Part shown: piece by piece, positions 52,892 through 60,182 of the stretch
Position numbering within the stretch: the first letter of the stretch is position 1
How the letters are laid out: each line of letters starts with the position of its first letter
DNA from: an uncultured Christensenellaceae bacterium
GTDB lineage: Bacteria; Bacillota; Clostridia; Christensenellales; Borkfalkiaceae
Assembly (NCBI GenBank): GCA_910586655.1
Contig: CAJUIR010000006.1
Span: 5,723-69,722 of the forward strand
Length of the DNA: 64,000 nucleotides
Direction: 5' to 3'
The notes under the pieces: generated by a model
The model's database searches: none
What the model was told of the DNA's origin: nothing
What the model saw: the letters and a program-made list of their open reading frames with translations, nothing else
Program-made: the position numbers and the translations under genes

Positions 52892-53458
52892 TTATGAATT
52901 ATATTTTCGTTTCCGCGTGATGACAAACAGCGGAACGCTTTCTCCGTGATCTCTGCCGCGTCCGATTGCGGCGGGTTTTTCCTGTTCCTCGGGCGTATCC
53001 AGCATCGCGGAAATTTTCATCAATTCCTGCGTACGCTCTTCCGAAAGCGCGTTCATTTTGTATTCGGACAGAATATGCGCGATCGTTTCGACCATCTCTT
53101 CTTTGGGCTCTTTCTCTTCTTCCGAAACTTGGTTCGAGCCGTAACGTTTTACGCCGACGGGCGCGGGCGCGGATTTTGCCTGCGCCTTAGGCGCAGTCTC
53201 CGTCCGCTCTTGCGCGGGATCCGCTTTTTTCATCTCGGATTCGTCGAGAGGCGGTTCGGGAAGCAGGTAAGAAGGAATTTTACGGCTGCCGCGTTGCAAG
53301 ACGTTTTCAAGACGTTCGTGCGCTTTTGCGCAGCGATACTCGTCTTTACTGAAACAATACAGACAGCGCGCATATTTTTTGCACATGTCGCAGCCAAGCG
53401 CTTTTTCCGCTTTCTCTTTTTCCTGTACCAGATACAAGTCTAATTCTTGCGTCGTCAT
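52892..53458 (-). CDS. Hypothetical protein with N-terminal Cys cluster and acidic, low-complexity remainder
   Basis: CDMCKKYARCLYCFSKDEYRC cluster near the N-terminus. It ends 26 nt upstream of the CNNM gene. I recognise no family. Confidence 0.45.
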   Translation of the reverse strand: MTTQELDLYLVQEKEKAEKALGCDMCKKYARCLYCFSKDEYRCAKAHERLENVLQRGSRKIPSYLLPEPPLDESEMKKADPAQERTETAPKAQAKSAPAPVGVKRYGSNQVSEEEKEPKEEMVETIAHILSEYKMNALSEERTQELMKISAMLDTPEEQEKPAAIGRGRDHGESVPLFVITRKRKYNS

Positions 53459-53625
53459 GTTTCACCTTCCGTAAAAGTCCGTAAGATATTTTTATTATAC
53501 TCGAAAAAAAGTTATTTTACAAGTGTTCCGCGGAAAATATTTCAAAACGTTCACAATTTTTTGATCCTTCGGTTTTTTGTTTCGCCTATCCCCCCAAACT
53601 TTTTCCTTATTTATAATAAAAGCGG

Positions 53626-53654
53626 TTGATTTTTTTCAAGCGATTGTTTATAAT
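53626..53654 (+). promoter_or_regulatory. Candidate rnf-operon promoter TTGATT-17-TATAAT
   Basis: -35 at 53626..53631 and -10 at 53649..53654. The first plausible start codon (GTG 53661) is only 6 nt downstream. Confidence 0.55.
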
Positions 53655-53660
53655 AAAACG

Positions 53661-54224
53661 GTGAAAAAAAAGGGAAAATCGATCGGTGCAAAAAAAATTA
53701 CGATACTTGCGCTGTTGACGGGACTGGGGCTGATCGCGTTCTTGATCGAAGCCCTCATTCCCGTGCTTCCCGTTCCCGGGGCGAAACTGGGGATCTCCAA
53801 TATTTTTTCTCTGTTCGCCCTCGTCATGTACGGTCTGCCGGAGGCGCTGATGGTCGTCGTCGCGCGGACGGTTCTGGGAAGCATTTTTGCGGGAAACCTT
53901 TCTCTTTTGCTTTACAGTTTAACAGCCGGCGTCGTAAGCGTCTGCGTTTCGCGCCTGCTTCTTTTGCTGTTCCCGCGCATCAGTATTCTTTCCGTCAGCG
54001 TAACGTCTGCCCTCGTACATAATCTCGTGCAACTGCTCGTGTACTGCGGATTGACGCAGACGATGCTTTTAATGTCCTATGCGCCTTATTTGTGCCTGAT
54101 GGGTACGGGCGCGGGGATCGTCGTGGGACTGGCAGTCGTATTTACCGTAAAAGCCGTACCCCTTTCCGTGTTCCATAAGATCGGGGTTGGAAATAAAGAA
54201 AATTCAGAAACCGGAGGAAACAAA
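53661..54224 (+). CDS. 'Gx transporter' / Hpre_diP_synt_I-like polytopic membrane module; no stop codon, reads in frame into rnfC
   Basis: KKITILALLTGLGLIAFLIEALIPVLPVPGAKLGISNIFSLFALVMYGLPEALMVVVARTVLGSIFAGNLSLLLYSL matches my memory of this family. The start (GTG 53661) is uncertain. The frame stays open to 55520. Confidence 0.65.
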
Positions 54225-55520
54225 TTGAAAGCGAAAAACGGAAAACTTTTCTTCCGCGGCGTTCACATTCGCGGCAGAAAAGAACTCTCGGAAAGCAATC
54301 CTATCGAACCGCTGAACGGTTCGTGGGAAGTTGCCATTCCCGTGAGTCAGCACATCGGCGCGCCCGCCGAGCCTGTCGCGGAAGTCGGACAAACTGTCAA
54401 ACGCGGTCAACTGATCGCAAAAAGCGCAGGCCGGATTTCCGCGAACGTGCATGCAAGCATTGCGGGCACGGTCAAAGAAATTGCGGAGCGCTGCGACGGT
54501 CGGGGTGTAAAGGGCGTTCACATCGTGATCGCGCCGAGCGAAAAACAGGAAACGGACTATCTTCCTCCCCTAACGGAACTTACGGGCGAACAGATCGCAA
54601 AGCGCGTAGAGGAAGCGGGCATCGTCGGTATGGGCGGCGCGGGCTTCCCGACGCACGTCAAACTTGCGCCCCAAAGCGCGGTGGACACGCTCATCCTCAA
54701 CGGCGCGGAATGCGAACCCTATCTTACCTGCGACGACCGACTCATGCAGGAACAGCGCGATAAGATCGTGCGCGGCGCATTCTATCTTGCCAAGGCGCTC
54801 GGCGTAAACCAAGTGATGATCGGCATCGAAAAGAACAAACCGCAGGCGATCGCATTGTTTGAAAAAACCGATCTCCAAGTGATCGCGCTCAAAAAGCAGT
54901 ACCCCATGGGTTCGGAAAAACACCTCATTTACTGCTGTACGGGCAGAAAAGTGCCGCTCGGAAAACTTCCCGCAGACGCAGGCGTCGTGGTGCAAAACGT
55001 AGCGACCGCGTACAGCGTATGCGAAGCCGTGGAAGATGGCAAACCGCTGATCGAACGCGTCGTCACCGTATCGGGAAGCGGCGTGGAACAACCGAAAAAT
55101 CTGCTCTGCCCCGTCGGCGCGCCCCTTTCCGCACTCATCGAGCAATGCGGCGGCGTAAAAGAAAACGCTGTGAAATACGTCGCGGGAGGACCCATGACGG
55201 GTACGGCATTGACGGGAGCGGACGCAGTCGTGACCAAAACGACTTCGGGATTCCTCTTCCTCACGGCAAAGGAAACGTGCAATGCAGAACCGACTCCCTG
55301 CATCAACTGCGGAAAATGCGCCGAAGTCTGCCCTATGAAACTCATGCCCATGCAGATCGAATTTTACGCGGCAAACAAAGATTACGAAAACGCGAATAAA
55401 CGCGGCGGCGCGCTCGCCTGCATCGGCTGCGGCGCATGCGGATATATCTGTCCTGCCCGCCGCCCGTTGGCACAGGCGATCAAAACGACAAAAGCCGAAC
55501 TCGGGAGGAAAAAATCATGA
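54225..55520 (+). CDS. rnfC: Rnf electron-transport complex subunit C module
   Basis: FFRGVHIRGRKELS...PVSQHIGAPAEPV N-terminus, GMGGAGFPTHVKL (NADH/FMN site) and two CxxCxxCxxxCP clusters. An in-frame TTG at 54225 has GGAGGA 6 nt upstream. Confidence 0.9.
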   Translation: MKAKNGKLFFRGVHIRGRKELSESNPIEPLNGSWEVAIPVSQHIGAPAEPVAEVGQTVKRGQLIAKSAGRISANVHASIAGTVKEIAERCDGRGVKGVHIVIAPSEKQETDYLPPLTELTGEQIAKRVEEAGIVGMGGAGFPTHVKLAPQSAVDTLILNGAECEPYLTCDDRLMQEQRDKIVRGAFYLAKALGVNQVMIGIEKNKPQAIALFEKTDLQVIALKKQYPMGSEKHLIYCCTGRKVPLGKLPADAGVVVQNVATAYSVCEAVEDGKPLIERVVTVSGSGVEQPKNLLCPVGAPLSALIEQCGGVKENAVKYVAGGPMTGTALTGADAVVTKTTSGFLFLTAKETCNAEPTPCINCGKCAEVCPMKLMPMQIEFYAANKDYENANKRGGALACIGCGACGYICPARRPLAQAIKTTKAELGRKKS

Positions 55521-56557
55521 GTCACATTCAAGTTTCCCCTACGCCGCACGTCAAAACGCGCCGCACGACAAAGCATATCATGCTCGACGTGCTGATCGCG
55601 CTCGTTCCCGCAACGGCGGCGAGCATCGTTTATTTCGGCTGGCAGGCGGCGGTGATGATCCTGATCGCGCTTGCTTCGGCATTCCTCACGGAATTCGTTT
55701 ACTACATCATTCAGAATAAAATCTGGAGAAGTCCCAAAGAAACCTGTTTGAAATTCTTCAGACAATTCGACTTCACTACGCTGGTCACTGGATTACTGCT
55801 CGCGCTGTGCATGCCCGCCAATATCAACGGCTGGTATATGCCGATATTGGGCAGTATCTTCGCGATTGCGGCGGTAAAAATGCTGTTCGGCGGCACGGGA
55901 AAAAACATCGTAAACCCTGCGTTGGCGGGAAGAGTTTTCCTGTTCATCTCCTTTACGTTGATGACGACAGCGGTTGCCTGCAACTTTGAAGCGATCAACG
56001 GCGGCGGCGCGGTACTGGAAACGGGCGCGACGCAACTGGGCGGCAATATCCTGCAAGGAAAAGAAAGCATCAACTTGCTCGATCTGTTCCTGGGTACGGG
56101 GTTAGCCACCACTGCAATGGGCGAAACCTGTAAAATCGCGTTGCTTGTCGGCGGAATTTATCTTTGCGTGCGCGGCGTGATCAAATGGTATCTCCCCCTC
56201 ATCTATATCGTGGTGGAAGGATTGTTTGCAGCAGCGCTCGACTGGAACATCAATTCGTTCCTTCCCTCGATTCTTTCGGGCGGTCTGATTCTGGGCGCGA
56301 TCTTTATGGCGACCGATTACGTTACTTCGCCCAAGAGCCGGATCGGAAATATCATTTATTTCGTGCTCCTCGGCCTTTTAACAGCGGGACTGAGAAAAGC
56401 GACGGGCATGGAAGTGGTTTCATTCTGTATCCTTCTGATGAACTTTATTGTATTCCTCATCGATATGTTCCTGCCGCTTCTTCCGTTCGGTTTTCAACGG
56501 AAAAAGAAAGAAAAGAAACCCGAAGCGGAAAAACCCGCAAAGGAGGAACGTGTATGA
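55517..56557 (+). CDS. rnfD: Rnf complex subunit D
   Basis: SPTPHVKTRRTTKHIMLDVLIALVPA start, a polytopic membrane protein, with an ETGAT candidate flavinylation motif. ATGA overlap with rnfC. Confidence 0.92.
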   Translation: MSHIQVSPTPHVKTRRTTKHIMLDVLIALVPATAASIVYFGWQAAVMILIALASAFLTEFVYYIIQNKIWRSPKETCLKFFRQFDFTTLVTGLLLALCMPANINGWYMPILGSIFAIAAVKMLFGGTGKNIVNPALAGRVFLFISFTLMTTAVACNFEAINGGGAVLETGATQLGGNILQGKESINLLDLFLGTGLATTAMGETCKIALLVGGIYLCVRGVIKWYLPLIYIVVEGLFAAALDWNINSFLPSILSGGLILGAIFMATDYVTSPKSRIGNIIYFVLLGLLTAGLRKATGMEVVSFCILLMNFIVFLIDMFLPLLPFGFQRKKKEKKPEAEKPAKEERV

Positions 56558-57957
56558 AAGTAAAAGAATTTTTCAAGAGCACGGCGTTTAAGAGTCTGGT
56601 CGTTCTCCTCTCTATCGTGATCATTGCCGGCGCGCTCCTCGCAATTTTTAACGACTTGCTTCACGTTTCCGATCAGGAAAAGTTCGAACGAATCATTAAA
56701 AAGATCTACGGCGGAAATGCTTCCGTCGAAAAGACGCTGGAAATTGCCGACGAAGACAAAACGTATTCCTACGGCGAAGTAAACGCGGCGTATCTGATGA
56801 GCGACGGCAATTACCTCGTTCAATCTACGGGTACCGGCGCATTCGGCAACGGTACGGTAACCGTGTACGTCGTAGTCGAAATGAAAGACTCCGCATTGGC
56901 GGGGATCGGAAAAGTCGTATTCGATTCGACGACCGTTTCCAAATACTACGAAACAAGCGGCGATTTCTTTAAAAAGTTCGACATCAGCGACGACAGAGTT
57001 GCCGCGGGAGAATATTTCGGCGTTTCGGAAGGGATCGTCAATCCCTCTGCGGGCGCGACGGCTTCGGCAAGATCGATCAATAACGCCGTAAACACTGCAA
57101 TCGACTTCATTAAAAAAGCGGTGCTCGGGCAAACGGTGGGCGAATTCACCTACGCATACGAAAAGTATATCAAAATGGACGCGTCTACCATCACACCCGA
57201 TCAAGAACAGAAATCGGTGGATTATGAACTCGTCGTATCCGAAAACGGCGAAGCGGTGGCGTTTAAAATTTCCGTCAAAGTCGTTGAAGGCGTGATCACT
57301 GAATATACGATCGTGACCAACGGCTCCACCTATGGCTTTGAAGAGAGCATGCCCCCCGAATTCCTCGCTCAGGGCAGTGAAAACTATTTCGTTAACAAAA
57401 CGCTTTCCGACGTCGAGGCGCTGCTCAAAGAGGACGGCAGTCTTTCCGAAGCGGGTTCCGGTCTGCATACGGGCGCGACATTCTCTACGCAATCCTGTAT
57501 CTGGGCTGCGGCGTTTGCAACCGCAAACTTCGAAGCATTCCTGTATCCCGTTGTTTACGGAGAACATATCGACGAAGAAACGCATACCGTTACAGACAAC
57601 GAAATTGCCTATCATATCACCGTATCCGAAAACGGCGAAGCGGTAGCGTTTAAAATTTCCGTTAAAGTCGTTGACGGCGTGATTACCGAATATGCAATCG
57701 TGACCAACGGCTCCACCTATGGCTTTGAAGAGAGCATGCCCCCCGAATTCCTCGCTCAGGGCAGCGAAAACTATTTCGTTAACAAAACGCTTTCCGACGT
57801 TGAAGCACTGCTCAATGAGGACGGCAGTCTTTCCGAGGCGGGTTCCGGTCTGCATACAGGCGCGACGTACTCCACGCAATCCTGTATTTGGGCGGCGGCA
57901 TACGCGCTCGGCAATTACGACACCCTGCTTGCAAAAGAAGGAGGTGCACAGGCATGA
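56554..57957 (+). CDS. rnfG: Rnf complex subunit G, expanded to three FMN-binding-like modules (467 aa)
   Basis: N-terminal TM anchor, then module 1 with SAGATAS. Modules 2 and 3 each end in HTGAT(F/Y)STQS. ATGA overlaps with both rnfD and rnfE fix the gene boundaries. Confidence 0.85.
   Translation: MKVKEFFKSTAFKSLVVLLSIVIIAGALLAIFNDLLHVSDQEKFERIIKKIYGGNASVEKTLEIADEDKTYSYGEVNAAYLMSDGNYLVQSTGTGAFGNGTVTVYVVVEMKDSALAGIGKVVFDSTTVSKYYETSGDFFKKFDISDDRVAAGEYFGVSEGIVNPSAGATASARSINNAVNTAIDFIKKAVLGQTVGEFTYAYEKYIKMDASTITPDQEQKSVDYELVVSENGEAVAFKISVKVVEGVITEYTIVTNGSTYGFEESMPPEFLAQGSENYFVNKTLSDVEALLKEDGSLSEAGSGLHTGATFSTQSCIWAAAFATANFEAFLYPVVYGEHIDEETHTVTDNEIAYHITVSENGEAVAFKISVKVVDGVITEYAIVTNGSTYGFEESMPPEFLAQGSENYFVNKTLSDVEALLNEDGSLSEAGSGLHTGATYSTQSCIWAAAYALGNYDTLLAKEGGAQA
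57235..57906 (+). repeat. Tandem direct duplication inside rnfG (period 387 bp; copies ~57235..57519 and ~57622..57906)
   Basis: The copies align base for base with roughly twenty mismatches over ~285 nt by eye, including a ~68-nt identical stretch. The ORF track's spurious ORFs 57332.. and 57719.. (MALKRACPPNSSLRA...) are the same sequence offset by 387 nt. Confidence 0.9.
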
Positions 57958-58685
57958 ATAAATACGGAAAAATAACGATCAACGGTCTCGTTACCAACAA
58001 CGCCGCATTCAAACTGGTGCTCGGCACCTGCTCGGCGCTTGCAATGTCCGCAACGGCGATCAAGGGTCTCGGGATGGGAATTTCGGTCACCGTCGTGTTA
58101 CTGTTGAGCAACGTACTCATTTCCCTGCTCCGTAAGGTGATCCCCAATGCGGTACGCATTCCCGCGTTCATCGTAATCATTGCAACGTTCGTGACGCTTT
58201 TGAGAATGTTTTTAAACAAATTCATTCCCGATCTATACGATTCGATGGGTGTATTCCTGGCGCTGATCGTTGTAAACTGTCTGATTTTAGGCAGAGCGGA
58301 AGCATTCGCAAGCAAACAACCCGTCCTTGACAGCGCGCTCGACGGACTTGCTTCGGGTCTCGGTTTCACGCTCGCGCTCGGCATCATGGGCATCATCCGC
58401 GAACTTCTGGGCGCAGGCAGTCTGTTCGATCAAAAACTGTGGGATTTCCAAATCGGATTCTTTTCCAGTTCCGCAGGCGCCTTCTTCGTGTACGGGATCT
58501 GTATTGCGATCTTCGTATTCATTACGGATAAAGTAGAAAAAGCGCTGCGGAAGAAAAAAGCGATCCTGCTCCGCGTAGATCATAGCGAACCTCTGCCCGA
58601 ACCGCAGACGGCAGCCGAAACGGGAATCCAGACCGATTCCGCATCGGAACTCGTTCAGGAACAGCAGGAAAAGGAGGCAGAATAA
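57954..58685 (+). CDS. rnfE: Rnf complex subunit E (with ~45-aa hydrophilic C-terminal extension)
   Basis: LVLGTCSALA and LALIVVNCLILGRAEAFA motifs. ATGA overlap with rnfG. Confidence 0.92.
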   Translation: MNKYGKITINGLVTNNAAFKLVLGTCSALAMSATAIKGLGMGISVTVVLLLSNVLISLLRKVIPNAVRIPAFIVIIATFVTLLRMFLNKFIPDLYDSMGVFLALIVVNCLILGRAEAFASKQPVLDSALDGLASGLGFTLALGIMGIIRELLGAGSLFDQKLWDFQIGFFSSSAGAFFVYGICIAIFVFITDKVEKALRKKKAILLRVDHSEPLPEPQTAAETGIQTDSASELVQEQQEKEAE

Positions 58686-59296
58686 TGGGCGCAACGATTC
58701 TTACGATTATTATCACGGCGGCATTCTCGTCGAACTTCATTTTAGTGCAGTTCCTCGGAATCTGTCCCTTCCTCGGCGTTTCCAAACGCACAGGCAGCGC
58801 GGTATCCATGGGCATTGCGGTAACGCTCGTCATGCTGCTTGCGACGCTCGTGACGTATCCCCTCTATCAATACGTCATGAAACCGCTTAAAATCGAGTTC
58901 CTCGAAATTATCTTCTTTATCTTTATTATTGCGGCGCTCGTGCAGATGCTCGAAAAGGTGATCGCGAAGATCTCCCCCTCTCTCTATAAAACGATGGGAA
59001 TCTATCTGCCTCTGATCACCACCAACTGTGCGATTTTAGGCGTTGCGGAACTGGTCATCGGCGATAAATTCTATGAAGCCATCGGTTTGGCGGAACCGGC
59101 TTCCATGAACTTAGGCTATGCGCTCCTCTATGCGCTGTTCGCAGGCGTCGGCTTTACGCTTGCCATGGTACTGATGGGCGGCGTAAGAGAACGCGTCGAA
59201 AAACTTCCCGTCGCAAAATGTCTGAAAGGCTTCCCCATTACAATGGTTGTGGCAAGTTTCATGGCAATGGCGTTTTACGTGTTCACCATGATTTAA
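58685..59296 (+). CDS. rnfA: Rnf complex subunit A
   Basis: LGICPFLGVS and LPLITTNCAILGVA motifs. TAATG overlap with rnfE. Confidence 0.92.
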   Translation: MGATILTIIITAAFSSNFILVQFLGICPFLGVSKRTGSAVSMGIAVTLVMLLATLVTYPLYQYVMKPLKIEFLEIIFFIFIIAALVQMLEKVIAKISPSLYKTMGIYLPLITTNCAILGVAELVIGDKFYEAIGLAEPASMNLGYALLYALFAGVGFTLAMVLMGGVRERVEKLPVAKCLKGFPITMVVASFMAMAFYVFTMI

Positions 59297-59308: not shown

Positions 59309-60127
59309 ATGAGTAATTTGATTTTAGTAGATATGCATTGGGATATTGTTGGCATCGTCATCGGTATCTTTGCGGCAATCGCAATTATACTGACCGTTTG
59401 CATCCTGCTTGTGGCGAAATTCTGCAAGACCGATCCCAACGAAAAAGTGGAAGCCATTTTGTCGCATCTTGCGGGCGCAAACTGCGGCGGATGCGGATGC
59501 TCGGGCTGCGCAGGCTTTGCGGAAAAACTCGCAAAGGGCGAGGCGCAACTGAGCGATTGTCACGTCACCGGCGACAGTTCCAAAGCGGAAATCGCGGGCG
59601 TGCTCGGCATTGCGTTTGAAAACGCGAAACCTACGGTTGCCGTTTGCCGCTGCAACGGCGGAACGCATGCAAAAGACGAATTCTCCTATTCCGGCGCGCA
59701 CGACTGCGTAGAAGAAAATAAACTTCAAGGCGGTCACAAATCCTGTAAATACGGCTGTATGGGAGGAGGCACTTGCGTGAGCGTTTGTCCTGAATCGGCA
59801 ATTTGCATCAAAGAAGAATGCGCCAACGTCGATCCCGACCGCTGCATTTCCTGCGGCGCATGTCTGAGCGCTTGCCCCAAAGGATTGTTCATGCGCGTTC
59901 CCGCCGACGCAAAAGTGTTCATCGCCTGCTCTTCGCACGATAAAGGAAAGGCTGTGTTAGACGTTTGCGAATTCGGCTGTATTGCCTGCGGCAAATGCGC
60001 GAAGACCTGCCCTTCGGGTGCGATCTCCATGGTAGACAATCTCCCTGTGATCGACTACGAAAAATGTATTAAGTGCGGTAAGTGCGCAGAAGTCTGCCCT
60101 CGCCACACCATTCAGACAAGATACTAA
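59309..60127 (+). CDS. rnfB: Rnf complex subunit B
   Basis: N-terminal TM helix, a CGGCGCSGCAGFAE cluster and several ferredoxin-type CxxCxxCxxxCP motifs. Confidence 0.92.
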   Translation: MSNLILVDMHWDIVGIVIGIFAAIAIILTVCILLVAKFCKTDPNEKVEAILSHLAGANCGGCGCSGCAGFAEKLAKGEAQLSDCHVTGDSSKAEIAGVLGIAFENAKPTVAVCRCNGGTHAKDEFSYSGAHDCVEENKLQGGHKSCKYGCMGGGTCVSVCPESAICIKEECANVDPDRCISCGACLSACPKGLFMRVPADAKVFIACSSHDKGKAVLDVCEFGCIACGKCAKTCPSGAISMVDNLPVIDYEKCIKCGKCAEVCPRHTIQTRY

Positions 60128-60143: not shown

Positions 60144-60182
60144 AAAAGGAGCGCCGTCCGAAATTCGGACGGCGCTCCTTTT
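60144..60182. terminator. Strong terminator after rnfB (also faces the convergent small ORF)
   Basis: Stem AAAAGGAGCGCCGTCCG/CGGACGGCGCTCCTTTT. Confidence 0.9.

Follow-up and report, generated by a model that had tools for sequence, protein, structure and literature searches.

EetB has been described from Listeria monocytogenes, where this member of the Pfam family PF07456 binds flavin adenine dinucleotide (FAD) and has the RibU-like fold of the S subunits of energy-coupling factor (ECF) transporters, and where the export of FAD for extracytosolic FmnB/ApbE needs EetB together with the ECF-T-like protein FmnA (Rivera-Lugo et al. 2023, mBio, PMC9973259). The same study reported that eetB adjoins Rnf genes in 572 Clostridia genomes and described fusions of EetB to ECF-T and ECF-A domains, which were read as signs of physical partnership, and none to RnfC (PMC9973259). 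The solved RnfC subunits are without a membrane anchor and are held by arms of RnfD (PMC9588780). In the present work a stretch of 64,000 nucleotides (nt) from a gut Clostridia bacterium, referred to as the window, was analyzed, in which one continuous frame combines eetB with rnfC, the gene that opens the operon of the Rnf ion pump. As in the published eetB-rnf loci of Clostridia (PMC9973259), eetB is found in the genome together with Rnf genes, ApbE and an ECF module, and it is located directly upstream of rnfC throughout the genus; unlike in those systems, EetB is here covalently joined to RnfC.

We consider it probable, though by no means certain, that the locus represents a heritable eetB-rnfC fusion that arose from a TTGA overlap of the two genes, that yields two products whose parts act as they do when encoded separately, and that is reversible. 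EetB, RnfC, the co-location of eetB with the rnf genes and the FAD-export model were known already, and the fusion is unlikely to surprise a specialist much. The new elements are the covalent join of EetB and RnfC, of which no mention was found in the literature, its origin from a TTGA overlap, the retained internal start and the flickering distribution of the fused state.

Domain composition of the fused gene

The forward-strand reading frame 53577..55520 is free of internal stop codons, as had been stated in an earlier interpretation made from the DNA letters only (the sequence-only reading). GTG 53661 is the likely start codon, since all relatives start with ATG or GTG at the aligned position and since a promoter-like site is located inside the 647-codon version of the open reading frame (ORF) that begins at TTG 53577. 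This longer version, which is devoid of homology upstream of GTG 53661, was rejected. The deduced protein of 619 amino acids consists of two moieties (Table 1). The N-terminal module was proposed to belong to PF07456 (Hpre_diP_synt_I, the 'Gx transporter' family), and a profile hidden Markov model (HMM) check with Pfam confirmed this on residues 19-159 (E-value 1e-30; 107-111 bits against a cut-off of 30), the match spanning profile positions 1-144 of 147. The remainder is indeed a full-length RnfC, since positions 4-434 of the 435 positions of the TIGR01945 rnfC model match residues 197-617 with 483 bits against a cut-off of 245.95. Additionally, the Pfam domains RnfC_N (residues 197-292), Complex1_51K (316-454), SLBB and a 2x[4Fe-4S] domain (Fer4) were detected in the RnfC part. 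The translation of this moiety contains the motif GMGGAGFP of the flavin mononucleotide (FMN)/NADH site as well as two [4Fe-4S] cysteine motifs of the form CxxCxxCxxxCP (CINCGKCAEVCP and CIGCGACGYICP). The genome contains eetB and rnfC solely in this fused form; a second copy of either gene was not found. One 619-residue fused protein is named 'electron transport complex subunit RsxC' by the NCBI annotation, an automatic label that conceals the transporter module.

Recurrence of the fused frame in independent assemblies

Independent assemblies served as the error check of the junction. A near-identical or identical fused ORF recurs across many of them: the respective cluster at 90% identity comprises 37 member sequences, 11 of the 15 members listed are 619 or 647 amino acids in length, and these 11 fused members were seen on approximately 78 contigs from NCBI, ENA, Logan and JGI. 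Moreover, three more fused clusters were detected at 81-88% identity (P0003, P0004 and P0005), each originating from one to three assemblies, and two of these three further lineages are species representatives (G053 and G083). The linker of P0005 differs (…GGRITEKTNNGGFRSL…) yet stays in frame. A sequencing or assembly artefact, by which a base was lost or added in an A-rich stretch between two separate genes, would account for the fact that fused and unfused genes are distinguished by one base of an A-rich tail, and the genome is apparently a draft assembly of 16 contigs. However, the same fused frame is present on dozens of contigs that derive from independent samples and were built by independent assemblers, and also in three other fused species with differing linkers that remain in frame, so that this explanation is effectively refuted and retains hardly any probability. 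The fusion is therefore genuine, as the sequence-only reading had assumed, and is not due to the loss of a stop codon by error.

Origin and distribution of the fusion

In the closest unfused relatives, L004-L007 and L009, eetB is located directly upstream of rnfC and ends in a TGA codon that overlaps the TTG start codon of rnfC (TTGA). In the fused forms, the A-rich tail of eetB exceeds that of these relatives by 1 nt, about 25 nt before the Shine-Dalgarno (SD) sequence of rnfC, and in the fused form L003 by 4 nt. The length difference of +1 base places eetB in the frame of rnfC and the old stop codon out of frame; this ancestral TGA persists at positions 54226-54228. According to the proposed mechanism, an ancestral TTGA overlap would have been converted by one additional base in the A-rich 3' tail of eetB, which would have merged the two frames and would have absorbed the former ribosome-binding site of rnfC into a linker of 17 codons.

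Among the 130 species genomes of the genus that were scanned, approximately 47 contained rnfC, with eetB located directly upstream essentially wherever both genes were located. About 77 of the 130 genomes, some of which are incomplete, were without a match to rnfC or eetB. The eetB-rnf operon thus appears to be patchily distributed among close relatives. Three states of the junction can be distinguished. In most species the two genes are in different frames and overlap or are adjacent, the overlap of the eetB stop codon with the rnfC start codon (TTGA) being the usual form. In a second state, represented by G051:C12 (L028), G060:C1 and G085:C132, the genes share one frame that is interrupted by one TGA codon, located two codons ahead of the TTG, for instance GGAGGATTGAACTTTG, which leaves them one substitution short of fusion. 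The third, fused state was observed in 3 of the approximately 47 species (the window genome, G053 and G083). The expectation that the PF07456 module is normally encoded by a gene of its own holds, since eetB is separate in most relatives of the genus. The comparison of orthologous operons that had been suggested accordingly yielded separate genes in most relatives, but it also revealed that the fusion is not fixed, as sister species carry the TTGA overlap or the in-frame TGA.

A maximum-likelihood tree of the codon-aligned sequences groups the window with L020 and L001 in a starred fused clade, and the fused locus L003 pairs with the unfused locus L004 with support values of 82/84. This pairing, along with an approximately unbiased (AU) test against a single fused clade (p = 0.037), indicates that the state has changed at least twice. 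The tree and the AU test disfavour a single origin of the fusion, and two gains are indistinguishable from one gain plus losses. Additionally, two rare alleles that undo the fusion were identified on Logan contigs within the species of the window. In allele L022, the first GGA of the SD sequence has become TGA by the exchange G54213T, which re-splits the genes; this allele is derived from one run. The second un-fusing allele carries an extra T beside T54194 and was detected in L024 and L025, which represent two further runs of one series. Taken together, the comparison of sequences suggests that the fusion is one optional, reversible state of a labile junction that is at most weakly favoured.

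A region-restricted search of 5.8 billion proteins for long proteins with an EetB module yielded only the four related fused clusters, and the best 150 matches of a HMMER scan of 1.84 billion representative proteins were all stand-alone proteins of approximately 90-360 amino acids, most of them with 160-250. The event resembles Rosetta-stone fusions at the overlapping stop and start codons of coupled genes, in which a one-base insertion or deletion merges two cistrons and the downstream ribosome-binding site survives inside the ORF. Unlike those fusions, it connects a transporter subunit that is integral to the membrane with a peripheral redox subunit belonging to another complex; moreover, all three junction states (fused, in-frame stop and overlapping) are found side by side in the genus, and reversal occurs within the species of the window. 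The genus therefore provides a small and clear case of stop/start junctions that flip among separate, in-frame-stop and fused states, with fissions within one species.

Conservation of the internal rnfC start

At the junction of the two moieties, the sequence GGAGGA is followed by 6 nt and by TTG 54225 in the fused frame, as had been pointed out in the sequence-only reading. This element is the retained start of rnfC: GGAGGA-N6-9-TTG/GTG represents the ribosome-binding site of rnfC in every relative with separate genes, and since the same arrangement precedes these genes, the junction is inherited and not a product of chance. The linker sequence outside the SD sequence and the start codon varies among the fused lineages. 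In a comparison of four fused lineages, none of the 9 positions of the SD sequence and the start codon varied, whereas variation was seen at 29 of the remaining 48 linker positions (Fisher test without correction for relatedness, p = 0.0008). Moreover, a sliding-window analysis of six species indicated that the region 54209-54295 is 73-76% invariant, which is as high as the value of the catalytic motifs and places it among the most conserved DNA of the locus. A constraint on the peptide level is unlikely, because in the fused frame these bases specify no more than Gly-Gly and Leu within a linker that is predicted to be disordered. In the alleles L022, L024 and L025, which have a stop codon in the linker, RnfC must start at TTG 54225.

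Upstream of eetB, consensus-like -35 and -10 sequences were found in 14 of 14 genus loci compared (the window, L001, L003, L004, L007, L009-L016 and L020), and 6-9 nt separate the end of TATAAT from the eetB start codon, at which an SD sequence is not present. This arrangement of TATAAT and the missing SD sequence suggests that the mRNA of the rnf operon is leaderless or near-leaderless and starts at or beside the eetB start codon, which is GTG in the fused clade (window, L020 and L001) and ATG in most species. A leaderless GTG start in the fused clade is unlikely to reach the output of the rnf cistrons that are led by an SD sequence. As judged from the sequence comparisons, the locus most likely makes both the EetB-RnfC protein and free RnfC, and the most economical reading would be a minor fusion protein and a major share of free RnfC. 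Ribosomes starting at GTG 53661 would then produce the 619-residue protein, consisting of a membrane-embedded EetB, a tether of about 28 residues and a cytoplasmic RnfC able to dock on RnfD, and ribosomes starting at GGAGGA-N6-TTG would produce ordinary free RnfC.

Alternatively, only the full-length protein might be made, so that the internal SD sequence and TTG would be a silent relic and all RnfC would be anchored in the membrane via EetB. Elongating ribosomes that pass over the site can suppress internal initiation, and the fused frame is without a stop codon that would release ribosomes for coupled re-initiation. This alternative is nevertheless very improbable in view of the invariance of the SD sequence and TTG within a varying linker, the dependence of the linker-stop alleles on the TTG start, and the low likelihood that a leaderless GTG start would deliver RnfC in a 1:1 ratio with subunits translated from strong SD sequences.

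A hairpin that sequesters the SD sequence was considered as well and rejected. The minimum free energy fold pairs GGAGGAAA with UUUUCUUCC (rnfC codons 8-11), its energy is no better than that of shuffled sequences (z = 0.22), and the pairing (54213-54255) is not kept in all members of the genus; such a hairpin is therefore not claimed. The rnfC codons 8-11 are invariant at synonymous sites in six species.

Identity and putative partners of the EetB module

The EetB module alone was modelled by AlphaFold2 with a predicted local distance difference test (pLDDT) score of 87. Its transmembrane helices cover residues 8-32, 47-57, 59-77, 80-103, 109-132 and 135-165, and the pLDDT values of the helices are above 90. 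The top 14 fold matches of the module in the PDB were all S subunits of ECF transporters, with weak E-values (5e-3). The best match was TmRibU (5kbw/5kc0) with a template modelling (TM) score of 0.65-0.76 and a probability of 1.0, and further matches included S subunits of L. brevis, S. aureus RibU, ThiT, FolT and PanT. The module thus belongs to the same Pfam family as EetB of Listeria and has the same RibU-like six-helix fold, as predicted here. The N-terminal module is accordingly assigned to EetB, which in an FAD exporter represents the ECF-type S subunit. That the fused protein exports FAD is suggested by analogy with Listeria, as FAD binding and export have been shown for Listeria EetB only. 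The description of PF07456 as a family of unknown function in the sequence-only reading has to be corrected, because this FAD-binding, ECF-S-like exporter subunit has been studied in Listeria (PMC9973259). The same reading took the fusion as linking the family to Rnf; the covalent join is real, but the genomic link had already been published for the Clostridia genomes mentioned above.

The genome encodes the potential partners ecfA1-ecfA2-ecfT-truA in a single cluster on contig C9 and a single ApbE with a lipoprotein signal peptide (…AVFAAC) on contig C1. Unlike in Listeria, a dedicated T subunit of the FmnA type is missing from the genome, which contains only the housekeeping EcfT. EetB and the single EcfA1-A2-T module of the genome probably pass FAD to the lipoprotein ApbE, which would flavinylate RnfG and RnfD, and the RnfC half probably acts as the NAD(H) module of Rnf. 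The gene of the lipoprotein ApbE (G000:C1, locus L026, 920-3357, reverse strand) is flanked by two genes, one encoding a 206-residue lipoprotein with an FMN-binding-like '…LTGATQTS…' motif and the other a 162-residue single-pass membrane protein. ApbE and the two flanking genes look like a second flavinylation-associated cluster outside of the rnf operon.

Predicted topology of the fusion protein

AlphaFold2 modelled the whole fusion protein with a pLDDT of 85.8 as six membrane helices, a disordered linker and a well-folded RnfC. Both ends of the EetB module are predicted to be cytoplasmic, as in solved S subunits, on the basis of the even number of helices and the positive-inside rule, with six Lys/Arg residues among the 12 N-terminal residues and eight in the tail after helix 6. 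With the C-terminal end of EetB in the cytoplasm, RnfC stays in the cytoplasm as well, and the modelled topology is compatible with a cytoplasmic RnfC. The sequence-only reading had called for a check of this point, as a topology with RnfC outside the cell would have spoken against it; the six predicted helices with both ends inside do not lead to such an arrangement.

The RnfC moiety resembles RnfC of A. woodii (9eri_C) with a TMt score of 0.89, a root mean square deviation of 2.0 Å and 42% identity; the top five fold matches were all RnfC chains, and other solved RnfC structures are similar. Accordingly, the moiety has the same domains, cofactor motifs and predicted fold as the solved RnfC proteins of C. 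tetanomorphum (7ZC6), A. woodii (9ERI) and A. vinelandii (8AHX), and the gene order rnfCDGEAB is likewise shared. Unlike the solved proteins, it is predicted to be extended at the N-terminus by a membrane module of six helices and a flexible tether. The disordered tether of 28 residues may extend up to approximately 95 Å, so that EetB could presumably sit in the membrane beside the complex.

Selection on the join

Within the fused clade, the ratio of nonsynonymous to synonymous substitution rates (dN/dS) is approximately 0.09 for each half at a dS of about 1, which indicates purifying selection on both halves and a functional EetB in the fused protein. The pairwise dS values of the clade (window, L020 and L001) are approximately 0.9-1.3, with synonymous sites near saturation. 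Outside of Listeria, the supply of FAD by EetB for the flavinylation of Rnf had hitherto been deduced from gene neighbourhood alone. The covalent EetB-RnfC fusion with purifying selection on both halves adds independent support of the Rosetta-stone type for this partnership.

Several points weigh against a fusion whose parts simply act as when separate and yield two products. The frame has remained open through three species, despite the fact that a stop codon would arise from 8-10 of the 153 possible linker substitutions; the neutral expectation would be several stop gains on the three-species subtree, a rough estimate that ignores phylogenetic non-independence and rate variation. In addition, 50 of 51 nt of the linker are identical between the window and L020. 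The open frame and the conserved linker give a hint of selection that keeps the linker or the fusion, and part of the linker conservation can be ascribed to the initiation region of rnfC. Moreover, the leaderless GUG start may be weak and the fusion protein consequently rare, and both the existence and the ratio of the two products are deduced from sequence comparison. The toppling cycle of an S subunit on the ECF module might be impaired by the tether to RnfC.

Alternatively, the fusion might be adaptive. The EetB tether would keep the FAD exporter next to Rnf during the assembly of the complex, with the result that FAD would be released where ApbE loads RnfD and the triple-module RnfG; the membrane anchor on RnfC might stabilize the complex, and free RnfC from the internal start would merely top up the stoichiometry. 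The persistence of the fused frame in the three-species clade despite the stop-creating substitutions and the conservation of the linker peptide within this clade speak for such a role, as do the at least two state changes indicated by the tree and the AU test, with a possible second gain in L003. The fused gene is moreover the sole source of EetB and RnfC in the genome, RnfG of this lineage carries extra flavin-binding modules, and EetB fusions to ECF-T and ECF-A have been taken as signs of partnership in the literature. However, the genes are separate in sister species at the same distance, only 3 of the approximately 47 rnf-bearing species of the genus are fused, and two independent un-fusing alleles are found within the species of the window. 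The internal start is still constrained, which would be needless if the tethered form were the working RnfC, and the linker conservation could equally reflect a constraint on translation initiation of rnfC. An adaptive fusion is therefore possible but rather unlikely. The more specific proposal that EetB-RnfC bridges two machines, docking on RnfD through RnfC and on the ECF module through EetB so that FAD would leave the cell at the very place where ApbE flavinylates the nascent Rnf complex, and that it is kept by selection in the clade, is doubtful. If true, it would provide the first evidence of cofactor export that is physically coupled to the assembly of a respiratory complex. The fused protein also represents a natural construct for asking whether an ECF S subunit copes with a large cytoplasmic passenger, whether a tethered RnfC functions and whether FAD export is localized.

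Genetic organization of the rnf operon

The fused gene is followed by the remaining rnf genes in the order rnfCDGEAB, the downstream genes being coupled by overlaps of 4 nt or 1 nt (Table 1). A search of the region 53300-54400 for Rfam elements (riboswitch or other RNA) gave no match at an E-value of up to 1.

Table 1. Features of the fused eetB-rnfC gene and the rnf operon. Positions refer to the window; residue numbers refer to the 619-residue protein.
Feature	Position	Strand	Characteristics
Promoter-like site	53626..53654	+	TTGATT-17-TATAAT; -10 ends 6 nt before the start codon
Fused eetB-rnfC ORF	53661..55520	+	GTG start to TAA; 619 codons
EetB module (PF07456)	53661..54182	+	Six predicted transmembrane helices and a short amphipathic helix (residues 168-174)
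Flexible linker, residues 178-205, predicted cytoplasmic	54192..54275	+	Former EetB tail and first RnfC residues; pLDDT ~30
Site of second un-fusing allele	54192..54197	+	Extra T beside T54194: AAT AAA to AAT TAA; L024, L025
Retained SD sequence of rnfC, GGAGGA	54213..54218	+	Followed by AACAAA; Gly-Gly in the fused frame
Internal in-frame TTG, ancestral rnfC start	54225..54227	+	Unfused L004-L007 start rnfC at the same TTG
RnfC moiety, complete	54225..55520	+	431 amino acids; TIGR01945, 484.7 bits
rnfD	55517..56557	+	PF03116, E 1.6e-78; ATGA 4-nt overlap on rnfC
rnfG with extra FMN-binding-type modules	56554..57957	+	
rnfE	57954-58685	+	PF02508, E 1e-59 (rnfE/rnfA pair: 1e-59 and 1e-52)
rnfA	58685-59296	+	PF02508, E 1e-52
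rnfB	59309-60127	+	
Operon terminator hairpin	60144-60182	+	

A divergent gene (52892-53458, reverse strand) specifies a protein of 188 amino acids, to which Pfam gave no match; several Cys residues are clustered near its N-terminus (CDMC…C..C), and its C-terminal half is acidic and rich in Pro and Glu. A protein of 173-201 amino acids is encoded at the equivalent position beside eetB in all close relatives.

The fused protein P0003 of a sister species (L020, 4001-6244; also L021 and G083:C3) contains an insert of approximately 128 amino acids in its RnfC part (residues ~505-635) between the SLBB and ferredoxin domains. The insert, which is present in two independent assemblies, is a homologue of the FMN-binding-type modules that are repeated in RnfG (31-33% identity, E-value 1e-11) and is without the S/TGAT flavinylation motif. 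It thus represents a domain of extracytosolic type that was copied into a cytoplasmic subunit.

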